Shown piece after piece: positions 8,171 to 31,866 of a stretch of 64,000 bases of DNA (position 1 is its first letter; each line of letters opens with the position of its first letter). The translations under genes were made by a program, and so were the position numbers. A model generated the notes under the pieces. The model had not been told where the DNA came from and did not search any database. It worked only from the letters and a program-made list of their open reading frames with translations. The DNA is from Croceivirga sp. Its GTDB lineage: Bacteria; Bacteroidota; Bacteroidia; Flavobacteriales; Flavobacteriaceae. The DNA lies in the NCBI GenBank assembly GCA_050042945.1, contig JBHJJC010000064.1, positions 4,344 to 68,343 on the forward strand, read 5' to 3'.

Positions 8171-9056
8171 GAAATTGATGGTATGGAACACCTCGCTCAA
8201 CAATGACCAATAAGTGCCATAGCATTCAGTAAGCCTTTAATGAGTTGTATATAAGATGAATGCCCCTAACAAGACATCAAGCTCTAAAGGTTGGGCAATC
8301 TATAATAATTTCATCAAATGCCTTTAGAATAGTTTCAAAGATGATTATGTCATGGTGTCTTGCTGATCGCTGTTTGCCATATTGCTGTAGGAGCACCCGA
8401 TTTATTTGGTTTTGCAAAAAGAATGCCCGAATTAGAGAATTAATGGGCCAATGTTGTTTCAAGTTTATGAAAAGAAAAAGAAAAAATTAGCATAATTATA
8501 AAAAGGGAAAATAATTTTTCGATAAAATAGGGCTAGCAATCTCCTTCCAATCGGTTTTTTTTGATTGTGGTTATATTTATTTTAAAGAAAAATATTCTTG
8601 AGAAGTATGATTTACAATAGATTTTCACTCAAACAATCCTATTCTTTTTCACTTAATTTTCTTATTGGGCTCAATTCGGAACATCATTAACTTGTATCGA
8701 TTACAACATAAATCGAATATTTATAAGAGTTAAAACTTTTCTTCTGTGTTGGAAGCATTATTATTGCTACTTATATCGGGGGAATACAAAGTAAGGATTA
8801 GAGCGAAACGTAACTAGTAGGTAATTCCTTAAACAGATAAAACCTTGAGTGTTTTTTGGTTAAGAGACAATAATTATACTTAAATCGCATTTTATATTTT
8901 GTTCTATGTAGATCTTCTCATTTTTTCAGAGGGTCTTGGTTCTTAACCAAGCAGTACTAGACCAGTATTTAATTTTAGTAATTTTTAAGTAGATTATGGA
9001 ATCAAATGTTTGACCGATTCTTTGTAAGTATAGTTTAATAAATTGGAATAAAATTA

Positions 9057-10073
9057 ATGGTGTCGGAAATACAAAAGCGGCAGGAATGGAATGCTATTCT
9101 AGCTAGAATTGACAATTATGACTGCTATCATACTTACGAGTATAGCAGAATAAATAGAAAGCTCAATGAGACTCCCATTTTATTGGTTTATGAGGCCAAT
9201 AAAGTTTTAATAGCTTTGCCATTATTAATTCGTGAAATACCTGAAACTTCCTTTTTTGATTGCACTTCAGTATATGGGTATCCTGGACCAGTTTGTAGTA
9301 ATTATGCAGGGTATGAAGATTTTGAGAACTTTCAAGAAGAATTGAAACATTATTTTCATCAAAAGAAAATAATTAGTGTTTTTTCCAGGTTGAATCCATT
9401 TATTGAAAATCAGGAGCAAGCTATATGTAACTTAGGGACAATTAAAAAGTTAAGCTACGTGGTAAGTATAGATTTGACAAAAAAGACTTCACAGCAACGA
9501 CAACTTTTTTCTAGTACTACAAAGAGGTATCTAAATAGGGCTAGACGCTTATTATATGTAAAAAGGATGGAGACGGTAAGTTCAAATGACCTCGATATTT
9601 TTACTAGGATGTATTTTGAAAATATGAAGAGAGTCAATGCTAGGGAGAGTTATTTTTTCGAAAAACAGTACTTTGCTGAAATGGTAACTTCTCAAGAATT
9701 TGAAACGGAGCTCTATTATGCGATTTTAAAAGAGAATCATGAAATTGTTTCAGCTATGCTTATCATAAAATCCGATATGGGAGTTCATTATCACCTCTCA
9801 GGAACAAATGAGATGCATTTGTATCTTTCTCCGGCACGTTTGTTAATCGATGAAGTAAGGCTTGCGCATTCCAATTCAGGATTGAATTTCTTTAATCTGG
9901 GAGGAGGACTAGGTAGCAAAAAAGATAATCTTTTTTACTTTAAGAGTTCATTCTCTGATGATTACAAGAGATTTAAAATTTGGAAGTACATTGTAAATGA
10001 AAAGGTCTATCATGAACTATCTTCCCAAGTTCAAAATCAGAACGATGGTTATTTTCCTGCATATAGAAATTAA
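9057..10073 (+). CDS. FemAB-like / GNAT-fold (aminoacyl-tRNA-dependent-type) transferase
   Basis: 338 aa. The overall pattern matches the FemX/FemAB-related family: W..I......YHTYEY, TSVYGYPGP, FSRLNP, KRYLNRA, HYHLSGT, FNLGGGLG. The call is by family resemblance from memory, not from a catalytic motif. Confidence 0.55.
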   Translation: MVSEIQKRQEWNAILARIDNYDCYHTYEYSRINRKLNETPILLVYEANKVLIALPLLIREIPETSFFDCTSVYGYPGPVCSNYAGYEDFENFQEELKHYFHQKKIISVFSRLNPFIENQEQAICNLGTIKKLSYVVSIDLTKKTSQQRQLFSSTTKRYLNRARRLLYVKRMETVSSNDLDIFTRMYFENMKRVNARESYFFEKQYFAEMVTSQEFETELYYAILKENHEIVSAMLIIKSDMGVHYHLSGTNEMHLYLSPARLLIDEVRLAHSNSGLNFFNLGGGLGSKKDNLFYFKSSFSDDYKRFKIWKYIVNEKVYHELSSQVQNQNDGYFPAYRN

Positions 10074-10082
10074 ATTTACACA

Positions 10083-10838
10083 TTAAATTTTTTCAATGTG
10101 GTCCTTTAATAGGTATACGGTTTCACTGTTATAGAAAGTACGAAAAGCTTTTACCTTTTTATCGGCAGATAGTGCTGCTTTGTAATTTTGTGGAGCCTTT
10201 ATTGCGTATAATTTATGGTCGGTTGCCCATTTAGCCGTCCATTTAACCTCTTTAATATTCACCGGATTCATAGATTCCATACTTACAGAAAAAGAATTAA
10301 GGGGCAAGGATAATCCTTTTCCGATATGTTTGATTACAGCCTCCTTTCTGGTCCATAAACTAAAGAAACCTTCATATCTTTTTAATCTTGGTAATGACTT
10401 TAAGGCGGCTATCTCATCGCCGTAAAAATGGTTTTTGGCAATTTCAAGGATATCAAAATCCGTAGTTATTTTTTCAATATCTGTGCCTAAAGGATGATTT
10501 GCACAAAACCCTAACAATATTTGGTCACCTGAATGGGAAACATTGAAATGCGGAACAGAGGGTCCTTCCATTAAGGGTTTTCCGAATTCATCATATTTAA
10601 AAACAATATTTTGAGACCTCTGATTAGTATATTTTTCCAATAGTATCCTTAAAGCTCCCCTGGCACAAATAAAACTAATTTTGTCTTTTTCAAATCGATA
10701 TTTAGCGGCTCTGTCCCTTTCTTTCTGGCAAAGAATATTGGCAAATAAATCAATATCCTTATTTAAGAAATTATATGAAAAGGCCCATAGGTGAATTTCA
10801 CTGCTGTTAAGCTGAAAAAACTGGGGTTTAAAACTCAT
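10083..10838 (-). CDS. Sfp-type 4'-phosphopantetheinyl transferase
   Basis: FNVSHSGD, GTDIEKI and FSLWTRKEAVIKHIGKGL are present. The track start at 10892 overlaps the GT stop; the internal ATG at 10838 (MSFKPQFF) is plausible. Confidence 0.85.
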   Translation of the reverse strand: MSFKPQFFQLNSSEIHLWAFSYNFLNKDIDLFANILCQKERDRAAKYRFEKDKISFICARGALRILLEKYTNQRSQNIVFKYDEFGKPLMEGPSVPHFNVSHSGDQILLGFCANHPLGTDIEKITTDFDILEIAKNHFYGDEIAALKSLPRLKRYEGFFSLWTRKEAVIKHIGKGLSLPLNSFSVSMESMNPVNIKEVKWTAKWATDHKLYAIKAPQNYKAALSADKKVKAFRTFYNSETVYLLKDHIEKI

Positions 10839-10884
10839 ATTAATCCCTATAGGATTTTTTATTTTAGGATAAATTAACTTTATT

Positions 10885-12225
10885 TTAAGCAAGTAGGGGG
10901 GTCAATTTTCTTTGCCCATACTCTCGGTATTTCCTGTGAAAGAAATTCATTTTTTCTTTAAATGAAGGCTCTTCAAATATACGTTTGATATTTTTACGGA
11001 TTTGTAACGCATCGTCTTTATCCTTATCCCCTCTTATTCCCAGTCCATGATAATGGATTCTAGCGGCACAACCATTTTGGTCGAATTTTTTACCTGAATA
11101 TGCCAACATTGGTACGGAAAAATGGATACATTCATTGACACTGTTGTTGCCTGCATGTGTGATGCAACAATCCGTATGTTCCAACACCTTCATTTGTGGC
11201 ACCCAATAGATTATATGGACATTACTTGATTCTGTTTCCAACCGATTTGGAGGTAGTTTCCCTCCCAAACTAATAATGAGCATCCATTCATCCTTTTCTT
11301 CCACAGCGGAGATTACTTTTTTTAAAAAAGAAAGGTCAGGGTCTAAAAGGCTACTGGCAGCGCAATAAATGAGCTTTTTCCTACTATGTTCTTTAAGCCT
11401 TAAAATGTTATCTAGTAAATTGTTCTCCGTGATATTTAACATCATCTTTCTTTTTTCATGTACCATAGGACCAGCATAGTAAAAGTTTCGTTCGGGCTGA
11501 TGTGGAAAATCCATTTCAGCCATTGTGAATGAGATAAACGGAAGGTTAGTGTATGAAAAGAATATGGGTAAATTAGTAGCGATAAGCGTATCCGTAGGAA
11601 AACCGTTTTCTTTCGCATAGCGCAGTAAAGCAGCTCTTCTATAGCCTTTGAAAGTCAGATTGTTCAAAAATATTCGGAACTGTACTTTTATTTTGATATA
11701 AATCCAGTTAAACAAAATTCCCAGCGCACTTCCTTTTATTCCTTTGTTTGGAATAATGTCGGAACGTAGCGGTGGAAGTTTTGTGCCGTTTCCCATTTTA
11801 TTGGAAAACCATGTGCTCAAAATGGTTGTTGGTATTTTTAATGCGTAACAAACAAATATCAAGTCGTGTAATTCTTTATCGATCAGGACTTTATCGATAT
11901 GTAAATCAGATATGATTTTTTCGTAAACATCCAAGCCCAGCAATTTATTACCATCCTTTATGATTCTTTCCTTATTTTCTAGATGAAAAAGGAATTTCTT
12001 AATCCAGGAAAGGTTTTGTAAGCGACCGAGATTTTCTGTGGAAAGAGAGAGCTTTATCGGTGGTAGCTGAACATATGCCAAATCGTAACGTTCAATTTGT
12101 TCTTTTAAATCCAATACCGATAGACAGGTAATTTTATGTCCTTCGGATTTTAAACGATAAGCGACCTCTAAACTACTGTTCAAATTCCCTGTGAAACCGG
12201 TAAAAATTAGTCCTATGTGCGGCAT
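10885..12225 (-). CDS. GT1-family (MGT/UDP-glycosyltransferase-like) glycosyltransferase
   Basis: The C-terminal nucleotide-sugar signature is WVPQMKVLEHTDCCITHAGNNSVNECIHFSVPMLAYSGKKFDQNGCA. The N-terminus has a G-rich loop (GLIFTGFTGNLN). Confidence 0.8.
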   Translation of the reverse strand: MPHIGLIFTGFTGNLNSSLEVAYRLKSEGHKITCLSVLDLKEQIERYDLAYVQLPPIKLSLSTENLGRLQNLSWIKKFLFHLENKERIIKDGNKLLGLDVYEKIISDLHIDKVLIDKELHDLIFVCYALKIPTTILSTWFSNKMGNGTKLPPLRSDIIPNKGIKGSALGILFNWIYIKIKVQFRIFLNNLTFKGYRRAALLRYAKENGFPTDTLIATNLPIFFSYTNLPFISFTMAEMDFPHQPERNFYYAGPMVHEKRKMMLNITENNLLDNILRLKEHSRKKLIYCAASSLLDPDLSFLKKVISAVEEKDEWMLIISLGGKLPPNRLETESSNVHIIYWVPQMKVLEHTDCCITHAGNNSVNECIHFSVPMLAYSGKKFDQNGCAARIHYHGLGIRGDKDKDDALQIRKNIKRIFEEPSFKEKMNFFHRKYREYGQRKLTPLLA

Positions 12226-12363
12226 TACTGGTTAATTTGCGTTAGCTCTTGTTTGTATGTTTATTTTTGATTTTCTAAAATCCTTTTTCTTTGGGGTGAA
12301 ATCCAGTTTACCTAGTTTGGTAACCATTGACGGAGAACATTCTGGTGTTACATACTTCCCTAC

Positions 12364-14751
12364 TCATTTGTCAGCGATGTTTGCCTCAATTTTTTGAGCC
12401 ATTTCCAAAACATTTCCTTCATTGAAAATGGTATCGTGTCTCCCATTTAAATAAGAGAGGTGAACTTCTTTTTCTGAAATTGCCTGCCATCCCATACGGT
12501 ATTGATCGTTTATAAATTGGGTTTCTTTTTTTGTGAGCAATAAATACGTGTCCGCTATGTTTTTCTTGTTCCATGGATAAGTATTGTAGATGCGGATTAA
12601 ATTATTTTGAACTTTAGCCAAGCGTTTTTCATTTTCATTACCGATAATCATGGTTACGGTAGATTCGACAAAACGCGATAACTTGTTTCTAACAGCAAGT
12701 TTGATGGCTAATACCGGGTTTTGAGCAATTCTTTTAAAGAATCCTTGAATACGGGATTTTAATCGTGCTGTATCATTGAAATTTTCTTGATCGATGATGC
12801 TATCAACTATGAACAGCTTACATTCATGACCCTTCTGTTTGAGATAATGTGCTATTTCTATGCCTACCCCGGTACTAAAGCAATAGGTGATGATATGAAA
12901 TGGTCCGTTTGATTGAACTTTTAAGATTTCGTCCGCATAAGCAAATGCCATTTCTTCTATACTTGTATGCAATTCATTTTCTGAATCTATACCGGCAGGT
13001 TGTAGTGCATAAACAGGTCTATTTTTGTTCATAACACTAGCGAGTGGTTCAAAGAAAAATACATGTCCGCCACCTCCATGAATACAAAAAACAGGAGACT
13101 TGGTCCCACTACCTCTTAAAGGAATCAAATAGTTCCATTTCTTGTCGATATTTTCGTTGCTAATTGCAACGCCAAGCGAAGCGATAGTAGGATTTTCAAA
13201 AAGAACTTGCGGTGGTATTTTAATTCCCAATTTCTGGTCAAAAGCGGAAAATAGCTTTAGGGCATGGAGCGATTTCCCTCCAATGTCAAAGAAATTGTCA
13301 TATATGCTAATGGGTCTTATTTCAAATAGACTTTCCCAGATTTTAAGAAGTTCAAGTTCTGTATTGTTTCTGGCAGACCCAAAATTTTCGTTCCCTTTTT
13401 TTATCGTTGTTTTGTCTTTTTTGATGGAAAAATCCAATCGCTCTATTTGTGAAAGGTTTTCTTCAATGGTTTGGTGACTTTGATTGATAAAAATTTGTAA
13501 TAATTTTTTGAAGTTGCGCAAAAGCCAATCGGCAATTTCGGTCGATATAACTGCGGTATCTGAAATGAGTTGTACGGCAAACCCATCAATGGTCCTAATT
13601 ACCATGGTCACAGGATATGTGGAAGTGACCCCACTTCCAAAGTCTTTTACCAAGACTCCGGCACTTTCAATTTCATTCCAAGGGAAGTTTTCAAAAATGA
13701 ACAGATTATCAAATAAAGGGAGCTTGTTGGACCAGTTAATGAACTGTTCTATTTCGCCCGTGGTAATATGCTCAAATCTTCTGGATTTTATTTGCTGATC
13801 TTGGAGGTTTTTAAAGAAAGATGTAATATCAGTATCAATAGTCCATGAAGTGGTTACCGGAATGACGTTCATGAACATACCGGTCATGTGTTCTATGTTG
13901 ACCAATCCGCTAGACCTACCTGAAACGGTATTCCCAAAGACCATCTGGTTTTTATTGAAGTACTTTCCTAACAGTAAAGACCATATACCCTGTAAAATTG
14001 TATTTTGGGTAACTTTATAGGCCTTGGTCAGGGAAATTAACCCCTCTAAAAGAGCATCTGGGAATATTTCTTCCTGTATTTTATAATTAGAAGAAGTCTT
14101 TCTTGAATCACTATTGAAAATTGAAGGTGACCCAACCGATGCAAATACATTTTTCCAATGATGTTCAACGTCTCGGTGTTCAGTTTGATCGGCTAGTTGG
14201 TCTTGATATGCTTTCTGGGTTGGAATGGATTCTAGTGCAGTTTTTTTCCCTAGTTTGAAGTTTTCGTAAAAGGTGAAGACATCTTTGTAAATGATACTGG
14301 TGGACCATCCATCCAATAATAAATGATGACAGTTCCAGATAAGGAAATACTTGTTTTCCTTGGTTTTTATTAAATGTAAATTCCGTAACGGCCCTTTTTC
14401 AAAATCGATAGCTTGTCTCTTAGGGTTTGATTTGAAATGTTTTAATCTTACTTTGAACTCGTCTGGGTTCTCATTTGACCAATCAATAATTTCCCAATTG
14501 GCACTGATATGTTCATGTACTATTTGGACAGGATTTTTCACTTTTTCCCAATGTACCGTGGTTCTCAATACCTCATGCCTTTTGATAGCCGCATGCCAAG
14601 ATTTTTTGAGAACTTCAATGTCCAGTGGTCCTTCTAACAGGCATTGTACATGCAAAAAGCCTTGATCTGTTTTGTTCATCAAACGATGTAACAGCAGACT
14701 TTTCTGCATTTCCCCCAAAGGGTGTATTGTGACTACTTTTTTCCTTTCCAC
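12364..14751 (-). CDS. NRPS termination module lacking an adenylation domain: C-T-TE
   Basis: GTG start. The C core HHLLLDGWS is at 14302-14328. The carrier motif is FFDIGGKSLHAL, with Ser494 at 13270-13272. The TE region reads FCIHGGGGHVFFF, ITYCFSTGVG, NGRHD. At 795 aa there is no room for an A domain. Confidence 0.9.
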   Translation of the reverse strand: MERKKVVTIHPLGEMQKSLLLHRLMNKTDQGFLHVQCLLEGPLDIEVLKKSWHAAIKRHEVLRTTVHWEKVKNPVQIVHEHISANWEIIDWSNENPDEFKVRLKHFKSNPKRQAIDFEKGPLRNLHLIKTKENKYFLIWNCHHLLLDGWSTSIIYKDVFTFYENFKLGKKTALESIPTQKAYQDQLADQTEHRDVEHHWKNVFASVGSPSIFNSDSRKTSSNYKIQEEIFPDALLEGLISLTKAYKVTQNTILQGIWSLLLGKYFNKNQMVFGNTVSGRSSGLVNIEHMTGMFMNVIPVTTSWTIDTDITSFFKNLQDQQIKSRRFEHITTGEIEQFINWSNKLPLFDNLFIFENFPWNEIESAGVLVKDFGSGVTSTYPVTMVIRTIDGFAVQLISDTAVISTEIADWLLRNFKKLLQIFINQSHQTIEENLSQIERLDFSIKKDKTTIKKGNENFGSARNNTELELLKIWESLFEIRPISIYDNFFDIGGKSLHALKLFSAFDQKLGIKIPPQVLFENPTIASLGVAISNENIDKKWNYLIPLRGSGTKSPVFCIHGGGGHVFFFEPLASVMNKNRPVYALQPAGIDSENELHTSIEEMAFAYADEILKVQSNGPFHIITYCFSTGVGIEIAHYLKQKGHECKLFIVDSIIDQENFNDTARLKSRIQGFFKRIAQNPVLAIKLAVRNKLSRFVESTVTMIIGNENEKRLAKVQNNLIRIYNTYPWNKKNIADTYLLLTKKETQFINDQYRMGWQAISEKEVHLSYLNGRHDTIFNEGNVLEMAQKIEANIADK

Positions 14752-14856
14752 TTGCGGTTATACGGTTTTACTATTTCTAAAAACCCTCTAGGAATATGCC
14801 TGTGTTCCATATGGCCCAAAGAATATTTTCAGTTGCACTACAACATTTCTATTTCC

Positions 14857-17800
14857 TTATTCCAGTGAACCCAATAAATCATCCAGCTCCGTTTGACTCA
14901 GGCCTGCATCAGGGAAATCTGAAGGAGTATACGTCTTTTCCTGAGCATTTGTACAAAAGGACGAAATGCTGCTTAGATTTCCCAATAGATTATCCACTAA
15001 TTTTTTTATGGTATCATGTTTGTGCAATACCCGGCTGTAACTCCATCGCCCATTCAACTCTCCCTTTTCTGAAATCCAAGTATTCACTTCAAACATATAG
15101 GTACGCTCACTTAACGGGTGTCTTACATTGTCCAAAAGGAAATCCAATTCAACCCCTCTTGAAGAAACTTTCATCTGGGAACCGAGATAATTGAATGTAA
15201 CCTGAGGATAATCAACAGTTTCCAATTGATTTTTGATGTACCTTAATATACCATAACCTATCCCTCCGCGAGGAATATTTCTCATGGTTTCTTTTATATT
15301 AATGATATTACTTTTTCTATTCCCTCTATTTTGACCGTTGAACCTTACAGGAAAAAAGGATGTGAACCACCCAGCAGTTCCAGATAAGTCTATATCGGTT
15401 CCCTTGGTTTCGCGTCCGTGTCCTTCAATACCTATGCTTATTTCAGGGATTTTGCTCCATTTGGATAGTGTTTCTAACATGCCTGTAATCAAAAGTTCTA
15501 CTATTTTGGTGCCAAATGCCTCATTGGCACTGTTGAGCAAAATATCTGTTTGTTCCGCATCCATTCGAAAATCAATACTATCGATATCACTTTCATGAAT
15601 CGTATCGCTCTTTTTAATGAAATCAGTAGGCAACGATTTCACCTCCTTGATATGTTCTTTCCAAAAAGGGAGCTCATCCTCTAAATCCAAGTTTACCATA
15701 TAATTACTCCATGTTTGTATTGAAGAAGTTTTTTTAGGCAAGCTTAAAATTTTAGAATGATTGATTTGCTCTGACAGATAGATGAAATCATCGATGATAA
15801 TCTGCCAAGATACAGCGTCTATGACCAAGTGATGCCCCAAAAGTAAACATATCGGTGCGGTACTTTGCCCAGTGTATAGGTAAATACACTTGAACAATGT
15901 ATCTTTTGAAAGGTCTAAATTTTCTTGGGTATCTTTAATTATTTTAGTCAAGTATTTCGTTTGCTCTTGCTTATCGAGGTCGGAGATATTTTTATAGACT
16001 AGGAAGTTGATGCCTTTAGATTGCCCAATCGTAGCCTTCCATTTTTTTTGCTCTTTATAAAAATTAGAGCGCAGGGCATCATGTTGCTTCACTAGAACAC
16101 TCATAATATCCAAAAGCTCTTTTTCTTTCAAGGACGAAAGCCCAATAATCCGGTAACCTTGGTTCCAAAAATGGGGAGCATTTTTATGGGTCTCAAAAAA
16201 CCAATGTTGGATGGGTGTCATAGCGACACTACCCAAGATTATTCCAGTTTCTACTTCACCAATATTTGGGTTTTTTTTGATGGACACACATAGTTCTGCA
16301 ATAGTTTGATTTTCAAAGAGGTGGTTCGCCGTCAATTCGATGCCCTGTTTTCTTGCTTTTGAGATAATTTGTATGCTCAATATGGAATCCCCGCCAATTT
16401 CAAAGAAATTATCATTGAGACCAATTGGGCCCGTTTGTAGGACTTCTTCCCAAATTTGGATGAGCGTTGTTTCTATTGCATCGCGTTTTCCCATATTAGG
16501 CGTAATGACTCTGGAAAGTTCTGAAATGGTCTGGTGTTCGAATAACTGGTCTGCCGATAGTTCAAGGCCTAGTTTTCTTGCTTTTGAGATAATTTGTATG
16601 CTCAATATCGAATCACCACCCATTTCAAAGAAATTATCATCTATCCCAATAGGCGATATGTCGAGAACCTGCTCCCACAAATGGACCAATTGTTGTTCCG
16701 CACTGTCAAAAGTACTTTGATTTTCTTCCCTTGTTTTCACTTGGCCCATGGGAGTTGGCGCCATGGCCCTTAGCGTATTTTTATCCACTTTCCCATTTGG
16801 CAATACCGGGATATTCCCAACAATTTGAATGCTTGAGGGAACCATATAGTTTGGTAGTTGCTCTTTTAAAATGGAAGAGATTTTTAGGACGCTAGCTTCA
16901 TCTGTTTGTAATTTCACATAAGCCACCAATTTTTTTGAGACTTTGGATACTATCATATATATATCAGCATCCCTATTAGTGGCTTCCTCCTCCACCACTA
17001 GAACAACGGCTTGCTCGACCTCTTTTATGGCATGTAAAACATTTTCAATTTCATCAAGTTCGATGCGATGTCCCCGTATTTTCACTTGATCATCCGACCT
17101 TCCTAAAAACTCAAAACTACCATCTTTACGTTGTCTTGCGAAATCACCTGTCCTATATAGTTTTGCATCCCCTGTTTTTTCAAATGGATGGTCGATAAAA
17201 GCAGCTTTGGTCAGCTTTGGTCTGTTGATGTAGGCTTTGGACAAACCAGGACCTCCAATAAACAATTCCCCCGTTTCCCCTTCTGGTACTTGATTCAGGG
17301 CTTCATCCAGAAGTAAGATTTGGGCGTTTGCTACCGCTTTTCCAATAGGGATGGAACGCTCCAAGTCCTGTGGTTCAACTCGATGTGCCATACACCAAAC
17401 AGTTGCTTCAGTAGGGCCATATTCGTTGTATAAAGCTGTCTTAGGCAGAACTTTGAAATGCTTTTCTGCGGTATGTTTAGTGCAAGCCTCTCCTGCAACA
17501 ATAATCGTATTTAAAGACGCAAGGCACGCGACCTGGGCATGGTCCAAAATCACATCATAGAGCGTGGGCAGCATTAAGGTATGGCTTACTTGATGTGTGC
17601 GTATCGTTTCCGTCAATAACTGCATATCCTGTTCTAGCCGTTTTTCGGAAACCACCAAATTACCACCGCTGCACAAAGTCCAGAACAATCCAGCCTTGGA
17701 ACTATCAAATGCAATGGACGATAACAAAAGAAAGGCAGTCGGTTGGTTGGGGTAGAAATCCAAACGACCTCTAGTGGAATTCACGATATTCCCATGGGTA

Positions 17801-19752: not shown

Positions 19753-19794
19753 TTATATCAATCTTTTTTTATCAAATTCTGCTTAGAAACCTAT

Positions 19795-21033: not shown

Positions 21034-21462
21034 TTTAATCTCGATTTTCTTGTCTGTTAGACAACAAAAGAACATAACCAGGGGCATTAGTCAAAACGAA
21101 ACTCGTTAAGACCAAACATTAAACGCTAAAGTGGAATATTTGCATTTTAATGGGAACTTTAAAAGTAGTATGCTCTGGTTGGTTATTTTTGAAGTAACAA
21201 TATTCACTACTAAAAAAATTGTTTTATCAATATTAACCCCAATTAATTGTTATTTTTCGATGAATTTCACTTAATCAAGATAACTTTCGCAAGGGTAGAC
21301 GATAAAATTTCTGAAATTATGGAATTCAAGGTGCCTAAACAACCTGAATTTTTCTGCTTTAACTTTAAAATTCCCACTTCAACGAACTTTTTAAAACATC
21401 TACAGGAATATGCGGTTCTTTTGTAATATCCATTCTACCGTTTCATTAAATTTAAAGTGCAT

Positions 21463-22614: not shown

Positions 22615-22627
22615 ACCAAGTGTTGCT

Positions 22628-24202: not shown

Positions 24203-24428
24203 AATAATAGCGTATATAACGGATAACCTGCTGTATGAGCAATTGGACGACCCATTAACGGCAGATGAAAACCTACTGGAGAGTGGTTTGATAGACTCTT
24301 TGGGAATCATGAAATTAGTGGTATTTATTGAAAGTGAATTTGAAGTAGCCATACCTCCTGAAGATATGACTATTGAGAATTTTATGACAGTCAATCATAT
24401 CAAAGAATATCTGATGTTAGGGAAGTAG
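24192..24428 (+). CDS. stand-alone carrier protein (ACP/PCP)
   Basis: 78 aa with LLESGLIDSLGIMKLV; Ser36 is at 24297-24299. The start overlaps the A-gene stop by 11 nt. Confidence 0.85.
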   Translation: MNDKIIAYITDNLLYEQLDDPLTADENLLESGLIDSLGIMKLVVFIESEFEVAIPPEDMTIENFMTVNHIKEYLMLGK

Positions 24429-24489
24429 AATTTCTTTGTTAACTATCAAAAAACAACTTCAATTTTTTAGCCAAATATTTCTTCTATCA

Positions 24490-25566
24490 ATGAGGTTTAT
24501 AAAATTAGACGGTTTGCGCGGTATTTTTAGTTTAATGATAGTATTATATCATTACCTCCAGGAGTTTTTACCTATATATTTTTATCGTTTTTTTATTATC
24601 CGAGAATCATATGCATTTGTGGATTTCTTTTTTGTTTTGAGTGGTTTTGTAATTTCACATAATTACAATCAGATAGGGTCAAGGGAACAGTTTTTTACAT
24701 ATGTTAAAAAAAGATTCATTAGGCTGTACCCTTTGCTTTTTTATACTGTAATGATTTATTTTTTGTTTAGATTACTGGCATTAAACCTATTTCCTGATGT
24801 AATAGATTCGAGTGTGTCCTTTGATGCAATGCTAATCAAAACTTTGGACGCTCTACTTTTCACTAACTCAACGGTTATTTTAGGGGGAGAAAACGGTGGT
24901 ATGAATTCTCCTTCTTGGTCAATATCTGCCGAAATGATTACCTATATTCTATTTGGTTTGGTTGTTGGACTAACAGGAGAAAAAAAAATAGTTAAGTCAG
25001 TAATTTTTGGTTTGGTAATAGGTTTTGCCAGTATTATTTTGATTTATGAAGGTAGTTTATTTAAAATGTCAGACTATGGATATTTAAGAAGCTTTATCTC
25101 TTTTTTAATGGGTTACTTTGTATGGAAATTAAATCCTAAAAAAATAAAAATCAAGAAGAATCTTGAGCTTTTGTTCCCTTTAATTATTATACTCATGCTT
25201 TATTTTTTGCATAACTATAAGAATACAGATTTAAAATTCTATTTTGAATTTTTGGTTCCCCCTGTATTTGCTATGTTTATCTATTTTTTATTGGTGTCCA
25301 AAGGGTTGTTGACCTCTATGTTGGAAAGTAAACCAATTCAATACTTAGGAAAGATATCGTATTCTATTTATTTGAATCATTTTCTCATATTGATGATTCT
25401 ACCCAAAGCGTCTTTTATATTGTTAAAATTGGAAAATAGTAATGCAAACCAACTTTTAATACTAATTTTCACAATGATTCTGATAATAATATATTCTCAT
25501 GTAACGCATCAAATTATTGAGCTGAGAGGAGGCCGGTTTTTAAAAAGAATATTATTGAAATCATAA
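24490..25566 (+). CDS. acyltransferase family 3 (integral-membrane O-acyltransferase)
   Basis: MRFIKLDGLRGIFSLMIVLYH is followed by about 10 hydrophobic helices, and SWSISAEM is present. I prefer the ATG at 24490 over the TTG at 24436. Confidence 0.8.
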   Translation: MRFIKLDGLRGIFSLMIVLYHYLQEFLPIYFYRFFIIRESYAFVDFFFVLSGFVISHNYNQIGSREQFFTYVKKRFIRLYPLLFYTVMIYFLFRLLALNLFPDVIDSSVSFDAMLIKTLDALLFTNSTVILGGENGGMNSPSWSISAEMITYILFGLVVGLTGEKKIVKSVIFGLVIGFASIILIYEGSLFKMSDYGYLRSFISFLMGYFVWKLNPKKIKIKKNLELLFPLIIILMLYFLHNYKNTDLKFYFEFLVPPVFAMFIYFLLVSKGLLTSMLESKPIQYLGKISYSIYLNHFLILMILPKASFILLKLENSNANQLLILIFTMILIIIYSHVTHQIIELRGGRFLKRILLKS

Positions 25567-25586
25567 AGAGGAGGAACGATTCTATA

Positions 25587-28500
25587 CTAACCTTCTTCCA
25601 TCAAACGAATTAATATACTTTCCACATATTTCCCATATGTCTTGGCTGTAGGATACTTAAAAATATCTGCAAGTGTTAAAACATTTAATTCAAAAGATTC
25701 CTTTAACCTTGATGTAATAACCATGGCATTCAGGGAGTTACCTCCAATTTGAATGAAGTCATCGTCAATGCTTATTTGAGCTACTTTAAGGACCTCTTTC
25801 CAAACTTCTACAATGATTTCCTCAAATTCGTTGCTGGGTCCCATATAGGTTCTTTTATCTTCTAGGGCCTGGAGAGTAATATTTGGAAGCTTTTTTCTAT
25901 TGATTTTTCCACTTGAAAGAAATTCAAAAGTATCTAAATGAACATAATAGGAGGGCACCATATATTTGGGTAAATATATTTCAAGAGCAATTCTTAAATC
26001 ACGTTCCTCAATTGTGTTTCCACTATAATAGGAAGCTAAATATTCTTGTTCGTTTTGATGAATGACCTTAACCACTGCTTGATTAACGCCCGGATAGCTT
26101 TCTAACGACTTTTCAATTTCGCCAAGCTCTATGCGTAACCCTCTTAATTTGATTTGGGTATCAGTCCTTCCCATGTATTCAATAGCACCATCCATTCGAT
26201 ATCTAGCCAAATCACCAGTTTTGTACAATTTCGAATCAGAATTATTAGAAAATGAATCTTCTAAAAAACGCTTTCTGGTCAACTGATCTTTGTTCAGATA
26301 CCCATGGGCCACTTGAACTCCGGCAATATAAAGTTCACCCACAACTCCAATAGGAACAGGATTTAGGTCGTGGTCCAGAATATATATTTTGGTATTAGCA
26401 ACGGGATGACCAATGGGTACGCCATTTAAATAATCCCCTTTTTTACAATGCCAGCTCGTTACATCAACTGATGCTTCTGTGGGGCCGTAAAGATTGTACA
26501 ATTCAGCATAAAGTTTCTCATGGGTATTTTTAACTGTGCTCATTGCCAAGGCTTCTCCACTACAGAATATTCTTTTCAAACTTGCACCTCGGTATTCTAC
26601 ATCCCTTGTACTAATAAATATATTTAGCATAGATGGCACGAAATGTATAATGTTAACATTATGGGTAGCTATAGCACTAAGAAGGCTATCTTGATCCAAG
26701 TGTTCACCAGGTTGCGCAATGACCAATTTGGCCCCGACTTGCAAAGGCCAAAAAAGCTCCCATACCGAAACATCAAAAGTAAACGGTGTTTTCTGCAGAA
26801 AAACGGTTTTTTCAGTAACTGGATAATCGTTGTTCATCCAATTCAATCGGTTACAGATTCCCTTGTGATGGCATATAACCCCTTTTGGTTCCCCAGTGCT
26901 TCCTGAGGTGTAAATAACATATGCCATATCATCCGGCTGAACATTTACTCTAGGTTGTGTTTCAGGGAAGGTTTCTAAAGTATCCGTCAGAGAACGAATG
27001 TTATAGGAGCTTGTAATTCCCGTATCCATATTATTCCAATCTGTATTGTGATGGAAAAAGACTTTGGCTTGGGAATTTTTTAAGATGTATTCTGCCCTTT
27101 TCTTAGGTGTTGCAGTGTCCAAGGGCAAATAGGCCGCTCCTGCTTTCAAGATACCGTATAAAAAAAACATCATCTCAAAAGATCTGTCCAAGCAGAGCGC
27201 AACAATGTGGTTTTGCCCAACACCTTGCTGTTTTAGAAAATGGGCTACCTGATTTGTTTTCTTGCTAAATGAAAGATAACTCATGGACATCTCACCAAAA
27301 ACAAGGGCTGTATTTTTAGGATTCTCAAGAACCTGCGCTTCAAATTTATCAAGCAAGGTTTCACCAGATTCATAAACTACGGTTGTATTGTTCCAAGTTG
27401 CTATTTTTTTAATTTCTTGAGGCGTTATTATCGATACATCTTGTATTTTTTGATTTTTATTGGCTACGAATGCATCCAGTATTGCCATAAAATGTTGGCC
27501 AATGGAATCATACTGCTCTTTAGAAAAAATGGCATTGTTCAGATCAAATTGAAGTTGGTAATCTCCTTCGTTATTGAAATCATGTACTTGAAGTCGAATA
27601 TGGTGGTTGGAATCAATATGATCGGCCAACAACCAATTACATTTGGTGGGGATTCCTGCAAAATCATGGTAGATCGCAGGAATAAAATTGAAGAGCACAT
27701 TATACGTTTTCATCAATTCTATTGGCGCTCGGGAAATCATGGCATTCTTTAGAACGTCCAAGGACTCCCGTTGTATTTTTTTAAAGATGTCTATAAAACT
27801 ATCTTCGGTATTTATAGCTATATTCAAGGGCAGCAACTCCATAAAAAGCCCGATTGTCTTTTTATCTTTTGGACTACTTCTATTATGATTAGCCATCCCA
27901 ATGGAAAACTTCTCTAGATTACCAATCTTATAAATCAACGTGCAGATGACCGTTAAAAAAATGTTGGATAGCGCTAATTCCATCGTGAGTCCTTTGATAT
28001 CCTTTTCGTAAGAAAATGCTTTTAATTTTTCAGTTCTATCCTTTCCTAATTTAAAATTAACCCTTGTCGAGTCTGTTTTTACTTGATTCCGCTTTACCCC
28101 ATATAGCTGGGGTTTTTCAAGCGTATTTCTAAGTTTTGCTTTCCAATATGGAGAATTCTCCAATTCATGTTGGAATGGATTCTTATTGGCATATGCTTCA
28201 AATGTCAAAAATTCATTTTCATCGGTAGTCACCTCGCCAATGGCATTTATATAATATCTCTCCAGTTGATCATAAAGCAGCTTTACGCTCCAACCGTCTG
28301 TAATCAAATGATGCTGATTCAAATAGAAAACGAATTGATTTTCGCCTAATTTGAAGAGGACTGCACGATATAAAAGGGTACTTAAATCAAAAGGTATTTT
28401 TTTATCCCCATTTAACCATTCTCTACAAGCGAGTTTTGGTTTTTTTTTATCTACAAAATCCAAGAACTGTAATGGACTTTCTACTTTTTCCTTAAATACT

Positions 28501-28715
28501 TGAATGGGTATATCCTCCTCAATTGCTATATACAGTCTTAGCGAATCGTTAGAATCAACAAGCCTTTGAAAAGCCAATTTAAAACAGCCAACATCAATTT
28601 TCCCCTTAATTTCAAAAGTGAGGGGCATATTGTACATCGGGTTATTGGAATCTATTTCCTGCCCCATCCAAATCATCATTTGGCTGTGGGTCATTGGAGC
28701 TGTCTTCATGGTCAT
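25587..28715 (-). CDS. NRPS module C-A-T (A-domain code reads as serine)
   Basis: The C core QHHLITDGWS is at 28287-28313. The A cores are MAYVIYTSGSTGEPKG, NLYGPTE, YKTGD, GRTDTQIKLRGLRIE, SSGKINRK. The T motif is FIQIGGNSLNAM, with Ser995 at 25734-25736. My hand-extracted specificity residues are D-V-W-H-F-S-L-V-D-K. The track start at 28718 is a TTG; there is an ATG at 28715. Confidence 0.92.
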   Translation of the reverse strand: MTMKTAPMTHSQMMIWMGQEIDSNNPMYNMPLTFEIKGKIDVGCFKLAFQRLVDSNDSLRLYIAIEEDIPIQVFKEKVESPLQFLDFVDKKKPKLACREWLNGDKKIPFDLSTLLYRAVLFKLGENQFVFYLNQHHLITDGWSVKLLYDQLERYYINAIGEVTTDENEFLTFEAYANKNPFQHELENSPYWKAKLRNTLEKPQLYGVKRNQVKTDSTRVNFKLGKDRTEKLKAFSYEKDIKGLTMELALSNIFLTVICTLIYKIGNLEKFSIGMANHNRSSPKDKKTIGLFMELLPLNIAINTEDSFIDIFKKIQRESLDVLKNAMISRAPIELMKTYNVLFNFIPAIYHDFAGIPTKCNWLLADHIDSNHHIRLQVHDFNNEGDYQLQFDLNNAIFSKEQYDSIGQHFMAILDAFVANKNQKIQDVSIITPQEIKKIATWNNTTVVYESGETLLDKFEAQVLENPKNTALVFGEMSMSYLSFSKKTNQVAHFLKQQGVGQNHIVALCLDRSFEMMFFLYGILKAGAAYLPLDTATPKKRAEYILKNSQAKVFFHHNTDWNNMDTGITSSYNIRSLTDTLETFPETQPRVNVQPDDMAYVIYTSGSTGEPKGVICHHKGICNRLNWMNNDYPVTEKTVFLQKTPFTFDVSVWELFWPLQVGAKLVIAQPGEHLDQDSLLSAIATHNVNIIHFVPSMLNIFISTRDVEYRGASLKRIFCSGEALAMSTVKNTHEKLYAELYNLYGPTEASVDVTSWHCKKGDYLNGVPIGHPVANTKIYILDHDLNPVPIGVVGELYIAGVQVAHGYLNKDQLTRKRFLEDSFSNNSDSKLYKTGDLARYRMDGAIEYMGRTDTQIKLRGLRIELGEIEKSLESYPGVNQAVVKVIHQNEQEYLASYYSGNTIEERDLRIALEIYLPKYMVPSYYVHLDTFEFLSSGKINRKKLPNITLQALEDKRTYMGPSNEFEEIIVEVWKEVLKVAQISIDDDFIQIGGNSLNAMVITSRLKESFELNVLTLADIFKYPTAKTYGKYVESILIRLMEEG

Positions 28716-29007
28716 CAAAAAAATTAATACTATCGTAACACCCGAAGACCTTATGCCTTTGCAATGTGTTCTTCTGTGTTTTTAAATGTAGCGCTAATTT
28801 CCATAATCTTTACTGATAAGAACCAACGCCAATTAAAATTTCATTAAAACAATGGCTTCTAACTATAGAATGTCCCTCTCAACCCCCATATTTCCCACTT
28901 AACAGGTTTTTTTTGGGTTGGCACCTTAAAAACTTTTGATTTAACCTTTGTTTATGTAATAAACCATAAGCAATATAGGATTGTTGGGTTCCATGCATTA
29001 GAGTTAA

Positions 29008-29481
29008 GTGAAACGTAAAAAGAATAATAAAAATAAGTCTTTTATCCTTGTCTTTATGACTGTGGGAGTGAGCACCCTTTATGTTCTTGCCCCCCTACAC
29101 GAAGAAATTCGGGAGGTTGGCCATAACATCGCACATTATATTGAAGCACCCATTTCTTTTTTGGAGCACACTACCTATAGGAGTACGGAATTTCACACAG
29201 CACACGAACATATAGAAGCTGATCATGGGCATGAACACCTTTTCATTGACTTTTTAGGCGCCTTTTTGGAAAAGTCTTCATCGGAAAAAAGTCCAATGAA
29301 AAATTCTTCTTTAAAGTTGAAAGTAGATAAACACATTATTTCTGAACAAAAGTTTAAAAGGTATGTTGACGTTACTTGTGCTCCTGCCGTAACGATATGG
29401 AAATATATAATAGAGGTGTTACTAGGCTATCGCACCATAATTTATGTGCCTCCCCAAAACATTGATACCTGTAATGTGTAA
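29008..29481 (+). CDS. small membrane-anchored histidine-rich protein
   Basis: GTG start, then a Lys-rich N-terminus and one hydrophobic helix. There are 10 His in residues 31-77 (...HNIAHYIEAPISFLEHTTYRSTEFHTAHEHIEADHGHEH). An alternative ATG lies at 29056. I recognised no family. Confidence 0.5.
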   Translation: MKRKKNNKNKSFILVFMTVGVSTLYVLAPLHEEIREVGHNIAHYIEAPISFLEHTTYRSTEFHTAHEHIEADHGHEHLFIDFLGAFLEKSSSEKSPMKNSSLKLKVDKHIISEQKFKRYVDVTCAPAVTIWKYIIEVLLGYRTIIYVPPQNIDTCNV

Positions 29482-29628
29482 TGCTTAATCCAAATAGGAT
29501 TAGGTACGAAAAGTTGGGCAAGTTCATGCCCAACCATAATTCCATAAACAATACAAAAGCAGCACTTCTTATTGGAAGGGCATCACTTTTATTTGCTTGA
29601 CCAGAAGGTTGCCATTAAATAACAAATA

Positions 29629-31866
29629 ATGAAAAATTATATTTATATTCTCTACTTATTTTTTGTAATTGGAACAATACATGCGCACGATTTAAAAGGA
29701 ACTATTGTGGATGAATCAGGAGTTCCTGTTGAAGGAGTATCCATTGTTAACCAAACCACTAGGGGTTACACCTTCTCAAACGTCTCTGGTTATTTTGAAC
29801 TCGACGACATTTCTATTGGGGATGAAGTCGTTATAAATAGTCTAGGCTTTAGAACCCAACGGTTAACAATCGTTGAAAGTCAATTGGACGCGACCATCAA
29901 AATTATTTTGTTGGGGGAAGCAGTATCGTTAAATCAAGTTACGCTCCTTTCCAAAACAAATCCATTGACAGAATTAGCTAATGTCGATGTTCAAATAAAT
30001 CCGGTAAAATCTTCACAAGAGATTATGCGCAAAGTACCAGGACTTATTATTGGTCAACATGCCGGTGGTGGAAAAGCAGAACAGATTTTTTTAAGGGGTT
30101 TTGATATTGACCATGGTACCGATATTGCGATCAATGTAGACGGATTACCAGTAAATTTACCTTCACACGCACATGGTCAAGGTTATTCTGACCTACATTT
30201 TCTAATACCGGAAATCATTGATAACATCGATTTTGGAAAAGGGCTATATTACGCCGATAAAGGAAATTTTAATACAGCTGGTTATCTTGATTTGAACATT
30301 AAGGATAAGATTGACAACAGTTCCATTGTTGTTGAAGCAGGTCAGTTCAACACGTTGAGGGCAGTTGGTCTTTTAAAAGTGTCTGAAGGGGAATACAGCA
30401 ATGCCTATATTGCCTCTGAAGCTGTTCTGACCGATGGGGTCTTTGATGCTTCACAAAATTTTAACCGGTTGAACATTCTTGGCCGTTATAACTACAATAA
30501 CTATGAAGATGAGCAACTGACCCTTTCTATTTCACATTTTCAAAGTCGTTGGGATGCTTCGGGGCAAATTCCTCAGCGAGCGGTGGACCAAGGTTTGATT
30601 TCGCGATTTGGTGCTATTGATAGCACAGAAGGGGGTAATACAAGCCGTTCTAACATCTGGTTAAAACATATGAAACAGCTGGACGAACATCAACGTATTC
30701 GTACGAACGCTTATTTATCAAAATACGATTTTGAATTGTTTTCAAACTTTACCTTTTTCCTGAACAACCCGGTTGACGGAGATCAAATACAACAGGTAGA
30801 GAGTCGGACCATTATAGGTGCCGAAACCGCTTATGATGTGAATTTCCACACCGATAACCATAATGAGCAATTAAGTTTGACCTCTGGATTGGGCTTTCGA
30901 TATGACGATGTTGACAACAATCAACTATCCCGAACCAGAAACCGAACAGAAATTTTAGAACGGTTGGCCTTTGGTGATGTAGACGAACTGAACGGTTACG
31001 CCTACTCTAGTTTGACCTACAAAACCAAGAATTGGACATTTATTCCTGGTGTTCGTTTAGACTATTTTAGCTTTGGATATAATGATTTCCTTCAACCGAC
31101 CTTCTCTAGTTTACGGGAAAATGATGTTATTGTAAGTCCAAAATTCAATGCCATTTATAGCCCAGGTGAGAACTTCCAAATATATGGCAAAGCCGGATTT
31201 GGTTTCCACTCTAATGATAGCAGGGTTGTCAACGCCCAGAATGCTACCGAAGAAACGTTACCTTCTGCCTTTGGTGCTGATATCGGTACGGTGTTCAAAC
31301 CTTTATCAAACTTAATTATCAATGCTGCTCTATGGGGGCTGAGTCTAGAGCAGGAATTTGTATATGTTGGTGATGAGGCTGTGGTGGAACCCAGTGGAAG
31401 GTCAAGGAGATATGGTGTTGATTTCGGTCTGAGATATCAATTGACCGATTGGTTGTTTGCAAATGCCGATGTTAATTACACCTTAGCCAGAAGTATTGAC
31501 GAAGCCGATGGGGAAGATTTTATCCCATTAGCTCCTGATTTTACATCTGCCGGTGGTCTTACAGTGCGTAACTTGGGTAAATTTTTAGGGAGTCTAAATT
31601 ACCGCTATGTAGATGACAGGCCCGCAAATGAGAATAATTCAATTGTTGCAATTGGCTATTTTGTTACGGATATGAACATTAACTACAACTTCAATAAAAA
31701 TTGGTCGTTTGGTCTTATTGTTGAAAACCTGTTTGATACCGAATGGAATGAAACCCAATTTGCTACAGAGACAAGACTCTTTAATGAAGTGAATCCAATA
31801 GAAGAAATAACATTTACTCCAGGGACGCCCTTTTTCCTTAGGGGGCGTTTAACGGTAAGCTTTTAA
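29629..31866 (+). CDS. TonB-dependent outer-membrane receptor with CarboxypepD_reg-like N-domain
   Basis: Signal peptide, then GTIVDESGVPVEGVSIVN...SNVSGYFEL (Bacteroidota-type N-domain). The plug region reads IFLRGFD, followed by a long beta-barrel that ends in a terminal Phe (RLTVSF). Confidence 0.88.
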   Translation: MKNYIYILYLFFVIGTIHAHDLKGTIVDESGVPVEGVSIVNQTTRGYTFSNVSGYFELDDISIGDEVVINSLGFRTQRLTIVESQLDATIKIILLGEAVSLNQVTLLSKTNPLTELANVDVQINPVKSSQEIMRKVPGLIIGQHAGGGKAEQIFLRGFDIDHGTDIAINVDGLPVNLPSHAHGQGYSDLHFLIPEIIDNIDFGKGLYYADKGNFNTAGYLDLNIKDKIDNSSIVVEAGQFNTLRAVGLLKVSEGEYSNAYIASEAVLTDGVFDASQNFNRLNILGRYNYNNYEDEQLTLSISHFQSRWDASGQIPQRAVDQGLISRFGAIDSTEGGNTSRSNIWLKHMKQLDEHQRIRTNAYLSKYDFELFSNFTFFLNNPVDGDQIQQVESRTIIGAETAYDVNFHTDNHNEQLSLTSGLGFRYDDVDNNQLSRTRNRTEILERLAFGDVDELNGYAYSSLTYKTKNWTFIPGVRLDYFSFGYNDFLQPTFSSLRENDVIVSPKFNAIYSPGENFQIYGKAGFGFHSNDSRVVNAQNATEETLPSAFGADIGTVFKPLSNLIINAALWGLSLEQEFVYVGDEAVVEPSGRSRRYGVDFGLRYQLTDWLFANADVNYTLARSIDEADGEDFIPLAPDFTSAGGLTVRNLGKFLGSLNYRYVDDRPANENNSIVAIGYFVTDMNINYNFNKNWSFGLIVENLFDTEWNETQFATETRLFNEVNPIEEITFTPGTPFFLRGRLTVSF

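Follow-up and report, generated by a model that had tools for sequence, protein, structure and literature searches.

The window analyzed here, a stretch of 64,000 nucleotides from Croceivirga sp. (contig JBHJJC010000064.1, positions 4,344 to 68,343; all coordinates below are those of the window), carries at positions 9057-31866 a real, uncharacterised peptide-synthetase cluster. Its product is probably a small pyrrole-capped, His-containing metal-binding peptide that is re-imported via the cluster's own TonB receptor and a permease of the nickel/cobalt type. We lean slightly towards reading the cluster as a hybrid type II/type I non-ribosomal peptide synthetase (NRPS) line, which would make a short N-capped peptide used as a nitrogen-donor metallophore. 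A metal of the Ni/Cu/Co type is favoured over Fe(III), as judged from the predicted ligands and transport partners.

Domains of the window proteins were called by Pfam and NCBIfam profile searches. Three synthetase genes are located on the minus strand. The first (25587-28718) encodes a condensation (C, 27402-28706), an adenylation (A, 25881-27344) and a carrier (T, 25626-25817) domain, with Pfam matches to Condensation at residues 5-439, AMP-binding at 459-808 and PP-binding at 968-1031. The second (14857-19752) combines a C domain (18361-19659), an A domain (16789-18249; AMP-binding 502-841), the two carriers T2a (16507-16695) and T2b (16282-16470) and an epimerisation (E) domain (14860-16245); here Pfam reports Condensation and PP-binding twice each. 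The third (12364-14751, 795 residues) is A-less and ends the line with a C domain (13459-14727; Condensation 9-431), the carrier T3 (13174-13350; PP-binding 468-526) and a thioesterase (TE, 12388-13095; Thioesterase 553-788). The C domains carry the motifs HHLITDGWS (C1), NHIITDKWS (C2) and HHLLLDGWS (C3). Between the synthetases lie the parts acting in trans, i.e. a flavoprotein with acyl-CoA dehydrogenase (ACAD) fold, a free A enzyme and a PP-binding protein of 78 aa. Every call of this inventory in the initial annotation was reproduced, as were its GT1 glycosyltransferase, acyltransferase-3 (Acyl_transf_3), Sfp-type phosphopantetheinyl transferase (PPTase), HupE/UreJ homologue and TonB receptor; the end of the C-A-T gene, given as 28715, was corrected to the end of the open reading frame (ORF) at 28718. 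The profile searches likewise bear out its count of three A domains (TIGR01733 scores of 428, 421 and 352 bits, cutoff 317; all with Asp235 and Lys517) for five carriers. The rule of one A domain per elongating module does not hold here, as the C-T-TE protein is without one. It is known from other systems that a neighbouring A domain can charge a module without its own, so that the architecture taken by itself surprises less and represents a known kind of non-collinearity; what makes the finding valuable is a widespread and as yet uncharacterised family of flavobacterial clusters, for which the testable prediction is a pyrrole-Xaa-His metallophore associated with HupE. The term island, if taken to mean foreign DNA, is not supported, because the GC content of the cluster (0.32-0.42) does not differ from that of its flanks.

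The cluster had been called an orphan, which is true in so far as no characterised counterpart was found, but it is by no means a lone occurrence and belongs to a large, conserved mosaic family of biosynthetic gene clusters (BGCs) in marine Flavobacteriaceae. A metagenome scan with the ACAD alignment gave 386 confirmed matches, from which 80 loci were kept and labelled by BLAST against the window domains, while the gene context of 8 genome loci was read directly. Well over 100 ACAD proteins, from as many loci, were found at 58-94% identity. The recurrence of the family is thus documented by more than 100 close ACAD homologues, the 386 metagenome matches and 139 representatives of the small His-rich protein. 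More than 100 loci from Flavobacteriaceae or marine metagenomes carry the starter cassette, the His module, the HupE/UreJ permease, the TonB receptor and the small His-rich protein. Altogether, the recurrent core has seven parts: the ACAD/A/carrier cassette, the first module, the His module, HupE_UreJ_2 encoded immediately upstream of the His module, the TonB receptor, the His-rich protein of ~155 aa and the PPTase. Variable from locus to locus are genes for ornithine cyclodeaminase, GT1, methyltransferase, PhyH, sulfotransferase, acyltransferase-3 and an ABC exporter. HupE_UreJ_2, the His-rich protein and the TonB receptor belong to the conserved inventory of the cluster and are more than bystanders.

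The starter unit is assigned to three adjacent genes on the plus strand. They encode a putative FAD-dependent prolyl-carrier-protein dehydrogenase of the ACAD fold (21457-22614, likely start ATG 21463), a stand-alone A enzyme with a proline-type pocket (22592-24202, likely start ATG 22628; the 352-bit match to TIGR01733) and a type II peptidyl carrier protein (PCP) of 78 aa (24192-24428; PP-binding 34 bits), of which the DSLG serine is kept in orthologues and the gene position after the A gene is conserved in related loci. The best PDB matches of the ACAD are AnaB (4IRN, 392 bits) and PigA (5ZW0, 286 bits); among the NCBIfam models, PigA scores 389 bits and RedW 369 bits. Its catalytic Glu246, of the isovaleryl-CoA dehydrogenase (IVD) type, is invariant in the ACAD alignment. 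A search with the A4-A5 pocket segment of the free A enzyme returned two solved L-Pro--PCP ligases, PltF (6O6E, 1e-27) and 7THN (7e-16), followed by DltA (2e-10). Furthermore, a gene for ornithine cyclodeaminase, a proline-forming enzyme, adjoins the cassette in many related loci. Because of the ACAD matches, the pocket matches and this neighbouring gene, the trio most likely represents a prolyl-carrier-protein dehydrogenase cassette, and the starter would be proline-derived, most likely pyrrole-2-carbonyl. The ACAD and pocket matches also support the earlier suggestion that initiation comes from the free carrier protein. The same three parts are found in PltF/PltL/PltE (pyoluteorin), PigI/PigG/PigA and RedM/RedO/RedW (prodiginines) and AnaC/AnaD/AnaB (anatoxin-a, 2-electron oxidation). 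Compared to these, the window cassette would hand its product to an NRPS C domain and cap Ser/Asn-His rather than serve a polyketide synthase (PKS) or halogenase, and its host belongs to the Bacteroidota.

Some observations speak against a plain pyrrole-2-carbonyl starter. The ACAD scores stay below the NCBIfam equivalog cutoffs (389 vs 500 for PigA, 369 vs 650 for RedW). The code of the free A enzyme (DMFYLAVQCK) shares five of ten positions with that of PltF (DLLYLALVCK) and differs at the other five; together with Gln330 in place of Val, this makes a proline analogue a possible substrate. Moreover, the 2-electron enzyme AnaB and the 4-electron enzyme PigA both match the ACAD, so that a pyrroline starter, as with AnaB, is possible, and we know of no sequence feature that discriminates 2-electron from 4-electron oxidation, i.e. 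pyrroline from pyrrole. An N-hydroxypyrrole starter was considered and rejected: its formation requires two ACAD-like enzymes, including an N-oxygenase (PMC10849742), and only one ACAD is encoded in the cluster, which makes such a unit unlikely. The Cu(II) chalkophore chalkophomycin (chm) of Streptomyces sp. CB00271, whose N-hydroxypyrrole ligand derives from proline (PMC10849742, PMC11085572), differs in this point as well. In both systems a proline/carrier/ACAD cassette feeds an NRPS, and the pyrrole-derived unit, a ligand in chm, is predicted to have this role in the putative metal-binding product of the window too. The chm pathway employs two ACAD-like enzymes (N-oxygenase and dehydrogenase), a hydrolase, a re-loading A enzyme, graminine and a PKS; in contrast, the window has one ACAD, a presumed direct transfer and no diazeniumdiolate genes.

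The first module is predicted to activate Ser and the second one to activate His and then epimerise it. The A code of module 1 (DVWHFSLVDK) is the Ser code of the EntF type, and its C domain is divergent (best PDB match 73 bits), which fits the presumed task of receiving an acyl cap handed over by a type II carrier. The A code of module 2, DSALIAEVWK, is identical to a published signature of His-activating A domains (PMC12283262). Its E domain is recognised by TIGR01720 at residues 1482-1626 (116 bits, cutoff 74), and the translation contains the classical E motifs PIQHWF, HHLVIDAVSW, EGHGRE, GWFTSFFP and FNYLG. Both T2a and T2b, which are 64% identical to each other, display GGDSILSIQ, the signature of carriers serving E domains. 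In C2 (NHIITDKWS) the first His is changed to Asn relative to the family consensus HHIITDKWS, with the catalytic second His retained. Across the family, the A domains of module 2 (~37) all follow the pattern DS[AVT]x[IMV]AEVWK, while module 1 has an Asn code (DLTKIGEVGK, ~34 instances) in most members or a Ser code. An invariant His next to a variable first module is the pattern expected if His is an essential ligand.

The two modules differ in their organisation among relatives. While module 2 is contiguous in the window, in several related loci (L058 at 4032-9981, L056, L061, L062, L063, L066, L072, L079, L098) it is split after approximately residue 940, near the C-terminal end of the A domain, into a C-A protein of ~977 aa and a second protein with the rest of the A domain C-terminus and T(-T)-E. 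The split is presumably at the A8/A9 site, the usual insertion point of methyltransferase domains. In several loci a free-standing methyltransferase gene of ~262 aa fills the gap; in L058 its stop overlaps the next start by 4 nt. The Asn-type first modules often comprise ~1385 aa owing to an insertion of ~340 aa in the A domain (L062 at 12990-17144, residues ~900-1230; L056, L064-066, L070, L075, L078 and others). This insertion, which is absent from the window, matches the Pfam family of QueC/adenine-nucleotide alpha-hydrolases (27 bits, cutoff 22). QueC converts a carboxylate via an amide into a nitrile, and by analogy a modification of the Asp/Asn side chain on the assembly line is conceivable.

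The terminal C-T-TE protein has all parts needed for a last elongation except its own A domain. Its C domain is of the type accepting D-peptidyl donors (DCL), as suggested by matches to the corresponding domains of McyB (214 bits), BacC (205 bits), PvdL (176 bits), SrfA-C (161 bits) and TycB (148 bits) compared to 69 bits for the LCL domain of TycC, and consistent with its location after the E domain. A cryptic A domain was rejected, as the 795 residues are fully accounted for by C, T and TE, with no AMP-binding match at E<=0.01 and no unassigned stretch of sufficient length; the earlier statement that none is present is therefore correct. The motifs of C (HHLLLDG), T (GGKS) and TE (Ser/Asp/His) are intact. 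At least 120 full-length homologues of the same architecture exist at 35-46% identity, nearly all from marine Flavobacteriaceae, in which HHxxxDG is kept in 120/120 and the T serine in 117/120, the TE residues are conserved and an A3 motif occurs in 0/120. A scan of the genome contigs with the C-T-TE protein returned only distant NRPSs. The missing A domain, together with the His-to-Asn change in C2, could be taken as signs of decay of a cluster that is no longer functional. This is hardly credible, since every ORF is intact, the catalytic second His of C2 is retained, the A-less state represents the majority across loci, and purifying selection is indicated by ~120 homologues (35-46% identity) in which C3, T3 and TE keep their catalytic residues. 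Hence, one A domain has to serve an additional carrier, as the initial annotation had proposed from the architecture.

The His A domain is the most likely loader of T3, an arrangement known from yersiniabactin HMWP2. Four lines of evidence point in this direction: the relative L135 encodes C-A(His)-T-C-T-TE as one polypeptide of 1887 aa with a single AMP-binding domain; in five of the first eight relatives the His A domain resides on a carrier-less C-A protein (~977 aa) and so already charges carriers in trans; the similarity among C-T-TE proteins does not track the Ser/Asn state of module 1; and a fourth A domain was found in none of the cluster variants surveyed. The A-less C-T-TE is the commoner ending of the line where the ending is visible (window, L056, 57, 58, 61, 63, 64/65, 81, 88, 98), and a direct T-TE ending was seen in L060, L062, L071 and L142. 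In the yersiniabactin proteins HMWP2/HMWP1 a single Cys A domain serves three carriers, partly in cis and partly in trans; viomycin VioA charges VioI, and fungal ferrichrome synthetases possess A-less T-C repeats. The window shares with such systems the excess of carriers over A domains, the A-less module with intact C and T and, within the family, the cis form C-A-T-C-T-TE (L135). It differs in that the terminal module is a separate protein that follows an E domain, that two carriers instead of one precede this E domain and that the trans-charging is predicted.

The assignment of His to T3 is weakened by the carrier itself, because its core motif GGKSL is unlike the GGDSILSIQ of the His-loaded carriers, and recognition by the His A domain is thus not self-evident. 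The same assembly line could instead rely on the Ser A domain or the free proline A enzyme to load T3, so that the product ends in Ser or Pro. Sequence cannot tell which A domain serves T3, and the free A enzyme is a trans-acting loader by nature; we consider this alternative unlikely. Against it, module 1 alternates between Ser and Asn and the C-T-TE proteins are not grouped by this switch, and L135 places only a His A domain next to T3. Moreover, as is established, a type II A enzyme like PltF acts specifically on the carrier protein that is its partner. Loading by the FemAB-like enzyme of the cluster was rejected, as among the surveyed loci its gene is present only here and in L060, which is without C-T-TE.

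With T3 loaded by the His A domain, the following scheme can be proposed. The free A enzyme would load L-proline on the 78-aa carrier, where the ACAD would oxidise it, with pyrrole-2-carbonyl-S-PCP as the most likely result. In the C-A-T protein, the divergent C domain would join the pyrrolyl cap to Ser, and the C-A-T-T-E protein would add His on either of the two duplicated carriers and epimerise it to D-His. The DCL-type C domain of C-T-TE would then connect the D-His peptide to the amino acid on T3, giving most likely pyrrolyl-Ser-D-His-His, and the TE would release the product. Tailoring by the GT1, by the membrane acyltransferase and by the FemAB-like enzyme is possible; the predicted product is pyrrolyl-Ser-D-His-Xaa, possibly glycosylated or acylated. 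Once loaded with metal, the peptide would return via the TonB receptor of the cluster, and the periplasm-facing His-rich protein and the HupE/UreJ-type permease would move the metal inward.

The case for a metallophore rests on the logic of secretion plus a dedicated receptor. The TonB receptor (29629-31866, plus strand; Plug, beta-barrel and CarboxypepD_reg domains) is 62-84% identical in relatives and thus better conserved than the NRPS proteins. The permease HupE_UreJ_2 (19795-21087, minus strand, start probably 21033; PF13795 151 bits) has an extra N-terminal domain with a weak match to DUF6702; its gene is located directly upstream of that of module 2 on the same strand and occurs, with 54-88% protein identity, in nearly every related locus reaching that far. 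HupE/UreJ proteins are secondary transporters for Ni and Co (PMC4284471). Between receptor and synthetases, a small His-rich protein with an N-terminal membrane anchor is encoded (29008-29481, plus strand), a conserved partner of the receptor whose gene adjoins the receptor gene in L060-L063 and others. It matches no Pfam family, and a word-index search found only the protein itself, whereas the exhaustive search collected 139 representatives at E<=0.001. In this family >=70% of the sequences share His39, 43, 54, 63, 68, 74, 76 and 109, and for six of these positions the share is >=90%; the residues are arranged in HxxxH, HxH and DKH motifs; single-sequence AlphaFold gave a predicted local distance difference test (pLDDT) score of 39.9. 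Hence, a dedicated TonB receptor and an inner-membrane uptake component are conserved together with the NRPS genes, although the importer is of an unusual type, neither ABC nor MFS.

The predicted peptide itself offers a plausible binding site. By analogy, a cap-Xaa-His unit would provide the pyrrole N, two amide N and the imidazole N in the same 5,5,6 chelate geometry as the amino-terminal Cu(II)- and Ni(II)-binding (ATCUN) motif H2N-Xaa-Xaa-His, and an invariant His with a variable middle residue is what the ATCUN motif predicts. Other His-derived metallophores are the opines staphylopine and pseudopaline. The metals bound by ATCUN peptides and opines overlap with those suggested by HupE; the predicted peptide differs from them by a pyrrole N in place of the free amine, by being made on an NRPS and not on the ribosome or by an opine synthase, and by metal binding that is so far predicted.

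Several points weigh against the metallophore function. The receptor matches no substrate-defined family in NCBIfam or the PDB, and HupE_UreJ_2 is an uncharacterised branch of the HupE/UreJ family, with a presumed direction of transport. A plain pyrrole N-H is, to our knowledge, not an established metallophore ligand. A metal-responsive regulator, riboswitch or conserved operator was not found, either by Rfam over the 64 kb or by k-mer search in 66 loci, and no homologue of an ABC exporter is encoded anywhere in the 64-kb window. For every family member, the product and its metal binding are predictions from sequence. With the recognised chelator genes being absent and no metal regulator found, the product could also act as antibiotic, as signal or, in the form of a glycopeptide, in surface modification, and the receptor, HupE and the His-rich protein could form a separate metal-uptake unit merely co-travelling with the synthetases; GT1, acyltransferase-3 and the FemAB-like enzyme equally suit cell-envelope chemistry, and TonB receptors occur in non-metallophore clusters too (10.64898/2026.08.03.742642). 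We regard this as rather improbable, because the three transport-related genes have stayed with the cassette over many rearrangements and swaps of domains, the module 2 gene directly follows HupE on the same strand, and His is invariant in the predicted peptide. Moreover, an ABC exporter together with the same receptor in related loci represents the classic pairing of secretion and retrieval.

The statement of the initial annotation that no exporter or pathway regulator exists inside the cluster is true for the window, yet 18 related loci possess an ABC exporter (ABC_membrane plus ABC_tran) beside HupE, including L105 (1614-3455), where it is found between HupE and the receptor or ACAD. At the same place 10 loci, including L102 (218-1906), encode a polytopic membrane protein of ~550 aa without Pfam family, of which no homologue was found in the 64-kb window. 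Genes for copper efflux adjoin the clusters of two relatives, a weak hint of a metal role.

It is very improbable that the product is an Fe(III) siderophore of the classical enterobactin type, made by TE-catalysed oligomerisation of an aryl-capped Ser unit. The window resembles EntF/FepA of enterobactin in the identical Ser code (DVWHFSLVDK, with an end-to-end alignment to the EntF model of 482 bits), in a C domain that would have to accept a (hetero)aryl-carrier donor and in a TonB receptor within the cluster, and the GT1 can be compared to IroB. On the other hand, no genes for dihydroxybenzoate (DHB) or for other catechol, hydroxamate or hydroxy-acid ligands are present, the Ser module is without TE and is joined by further His modules, and most relatives use Asn instead of Ser, so that ester oligomerisation is not the logic of the family. 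Moreover, the predicted N donors should suit Cu, Ni, Co and Zn better than Fe(III), and the importer is of the HupE type and not a siderophore ABC system.

Among the ORFs of 9057-31866, none of the recognised chelator genes (catechol, hydroxamate, beta-hydroxy-Asp/His, thiazoline/oxazoline, graminine) and no Cy domain was found, and PhyH occurs in some relatives only. A literature search (pyrrole, histidine, Flavobacteriaceae, metallophore, HupE, chalkophore) found no characterised cluster or compound with this combination, and a BGC survey of 2,680 Flavobacteriaceae genomes (PMC10734526) provided no characterised counterpart. A sponge-halogenase preprint and a paper on copper TonB-dependent transporters (TBDTs) were rejected as related systems, being unrelated to the cluster. 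The current rules for genome mining of metallophores appear not to cover the family, because the chelator genes checked are absent and the paper on the peptide-metallophore rule set (PMC12971057) mentions neither Bacteroidota nor pyrrole. All individual mechanisms have precedents, i.e. type II pyrrole cassettes, the pyrrole-derived ligand of chalkophomycin, the shared A domains of yersiniabactin and viomycin, and the succession of an E and a DCL domain. No new kind of enzymology is involved; the novelty lies in the family and in its transport partners.

As a tentative and still doubtful extension, the family may represent a previously unrecognised class of nitrogen-donor metallophores, in which ATCUN-mimicking pyrrolyl-Xaa-His(-His), often glycosylated, scavenges Ni, Cu or Co in seawater and is taken up via TonB receptor, His-rich protein and HupE/UreJ permease without an ABC importer of the siderophore type. 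In the ocean, Flavobacteriaceae have a major part in degrading organic matter from algae, and besides NRPS-independent hydroxamate siderophores we know of almost nothing about their trace-metal acquisition. If the proposal is true, abundant marine Flavobacteriaceae would own a dedicated acquisition system for non-iron trace metals, a specific molecule and uptake route could be assigned to Ni, Cu or Co cycling, and the rules by which metallophore clusters are currently detected would prove to have a blind spot.

The mosaic evolution of the family is best seen in the closest relative, L060. Its ACAD is 94% identical and its DNA 82% identical over 7.8 kb (window 16574-24388), compared to 72% over the His-rich and receptor genes. 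L060 has a simple C-A-T-TE where the window has T-E plus C-T-TE, and an Asn module, 31% identical and on the opposite strand, replaces acyltransferase-3 and the Ser module (window 24388-28874). One breakpoint of the swap, at window 16574, falls inside carrier T2a just 3' of its serine codon. These differences point to two recent cassette swaps, not decay. The family thereby offers a natural experiment on NRPS: the same core tolerates Ser/Asn swaps of the first module, duplicated carriers, a split module 2 and three ways of ending the line, one of which uses an A-less module that occurs in cis as well as in trans, with recombination breakpoints that can be mapped down to the carrier domain.

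The remaining genes of the cluster are mostly accessory. At its left end, a transferase is encoded (9057-10073, plus strand), which had been called FemAB-like. This name is weakly supported (Acetyltransf_6, PF13480, 28 bits; FemX model 30 bits, cutoff 500; no PDB match); a homologue (43% identity) was found only in L060. It is followed by an Sfp/HetI-type 4'-phosphopantetheinyl transferase (10083-10892, minus strand; Pfam ACPS and AASDHPPT_N, HetI model 124 bits), present in the 12 related loci whose retrieved stretch extends past the NRPS genes, and by a GT1 natural-product glycosyltransferase (10885-12225, minus strand; Pfam EryCIII-like_C and UDPGT, MGT family 97 bits). The GT1 gene is frequent in related loci; its PDB matches OleI, OleD and YjiC cover the C-terminal half only. 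The membrane acyltransferase-3 (24436-25566, plus strand; PF01757 104 bits), regarded as accessory tailoring enzyme, is also present in L061 and L142.

As for non-coding elements, Rfam gave no match at gathering score over the 64 kb and one sub-threshold chance match inside the cluster, hence no B12 or NiCo riboswitch. A scan for sigma-70 promoters and terminators found matches no more numerous than in shuffled sequence, and the k-mer search for a shared operator upstream of ACAD recovered only the start codon context. A terminator-like hairpin is located at 31887-31908, 3' of the receptor stop codon. Another hairpin between the His-rich and receptor genes (29506-29530, GTTGGGCAAGTTCATGCCCAAC) has a counterpart in L060 (16790-16812, TTGGACAATTTCCTGTCCAA), in which the stem is maintained despite changes on both sides; it has no Rfam match and could be an attenuator or processing site. 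The divergent intergenic region between HupE and ACAD (21088-21456, ~370 nt), which lies inside the 7.8-kb blastn block with its overall identity of 82%, appears by eye highly similar to L060 9622-9994, which is high for non-coding DNA; it gave no match to a riboswitch or known RNA, and in L060 the gene caller placed an ORF of 55 aa there.

Directly after the receptor (32140-34488), a polyhydroxybutyrate (PHB)-depolymerase-like esterase, a cyanophycinase-like S51 peptidase (TIGR02069 127 bits, just at cutoff) and an M15 D-Ala-D-Ala dipeptidase are encoded; they were rejected as cluster members since they are not conserved in relatives. A D-amino-acid dipeptidase near a cluster for a D-His peptide might have a role in recycling. 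Finally, ~5 kb upstream of the cluster (1703-4145), the window encodes an AraC/GyrI-like regulator, a stand-alone GyrI-like/Cass2 effector-binding protein and a LytTR-domain protein.

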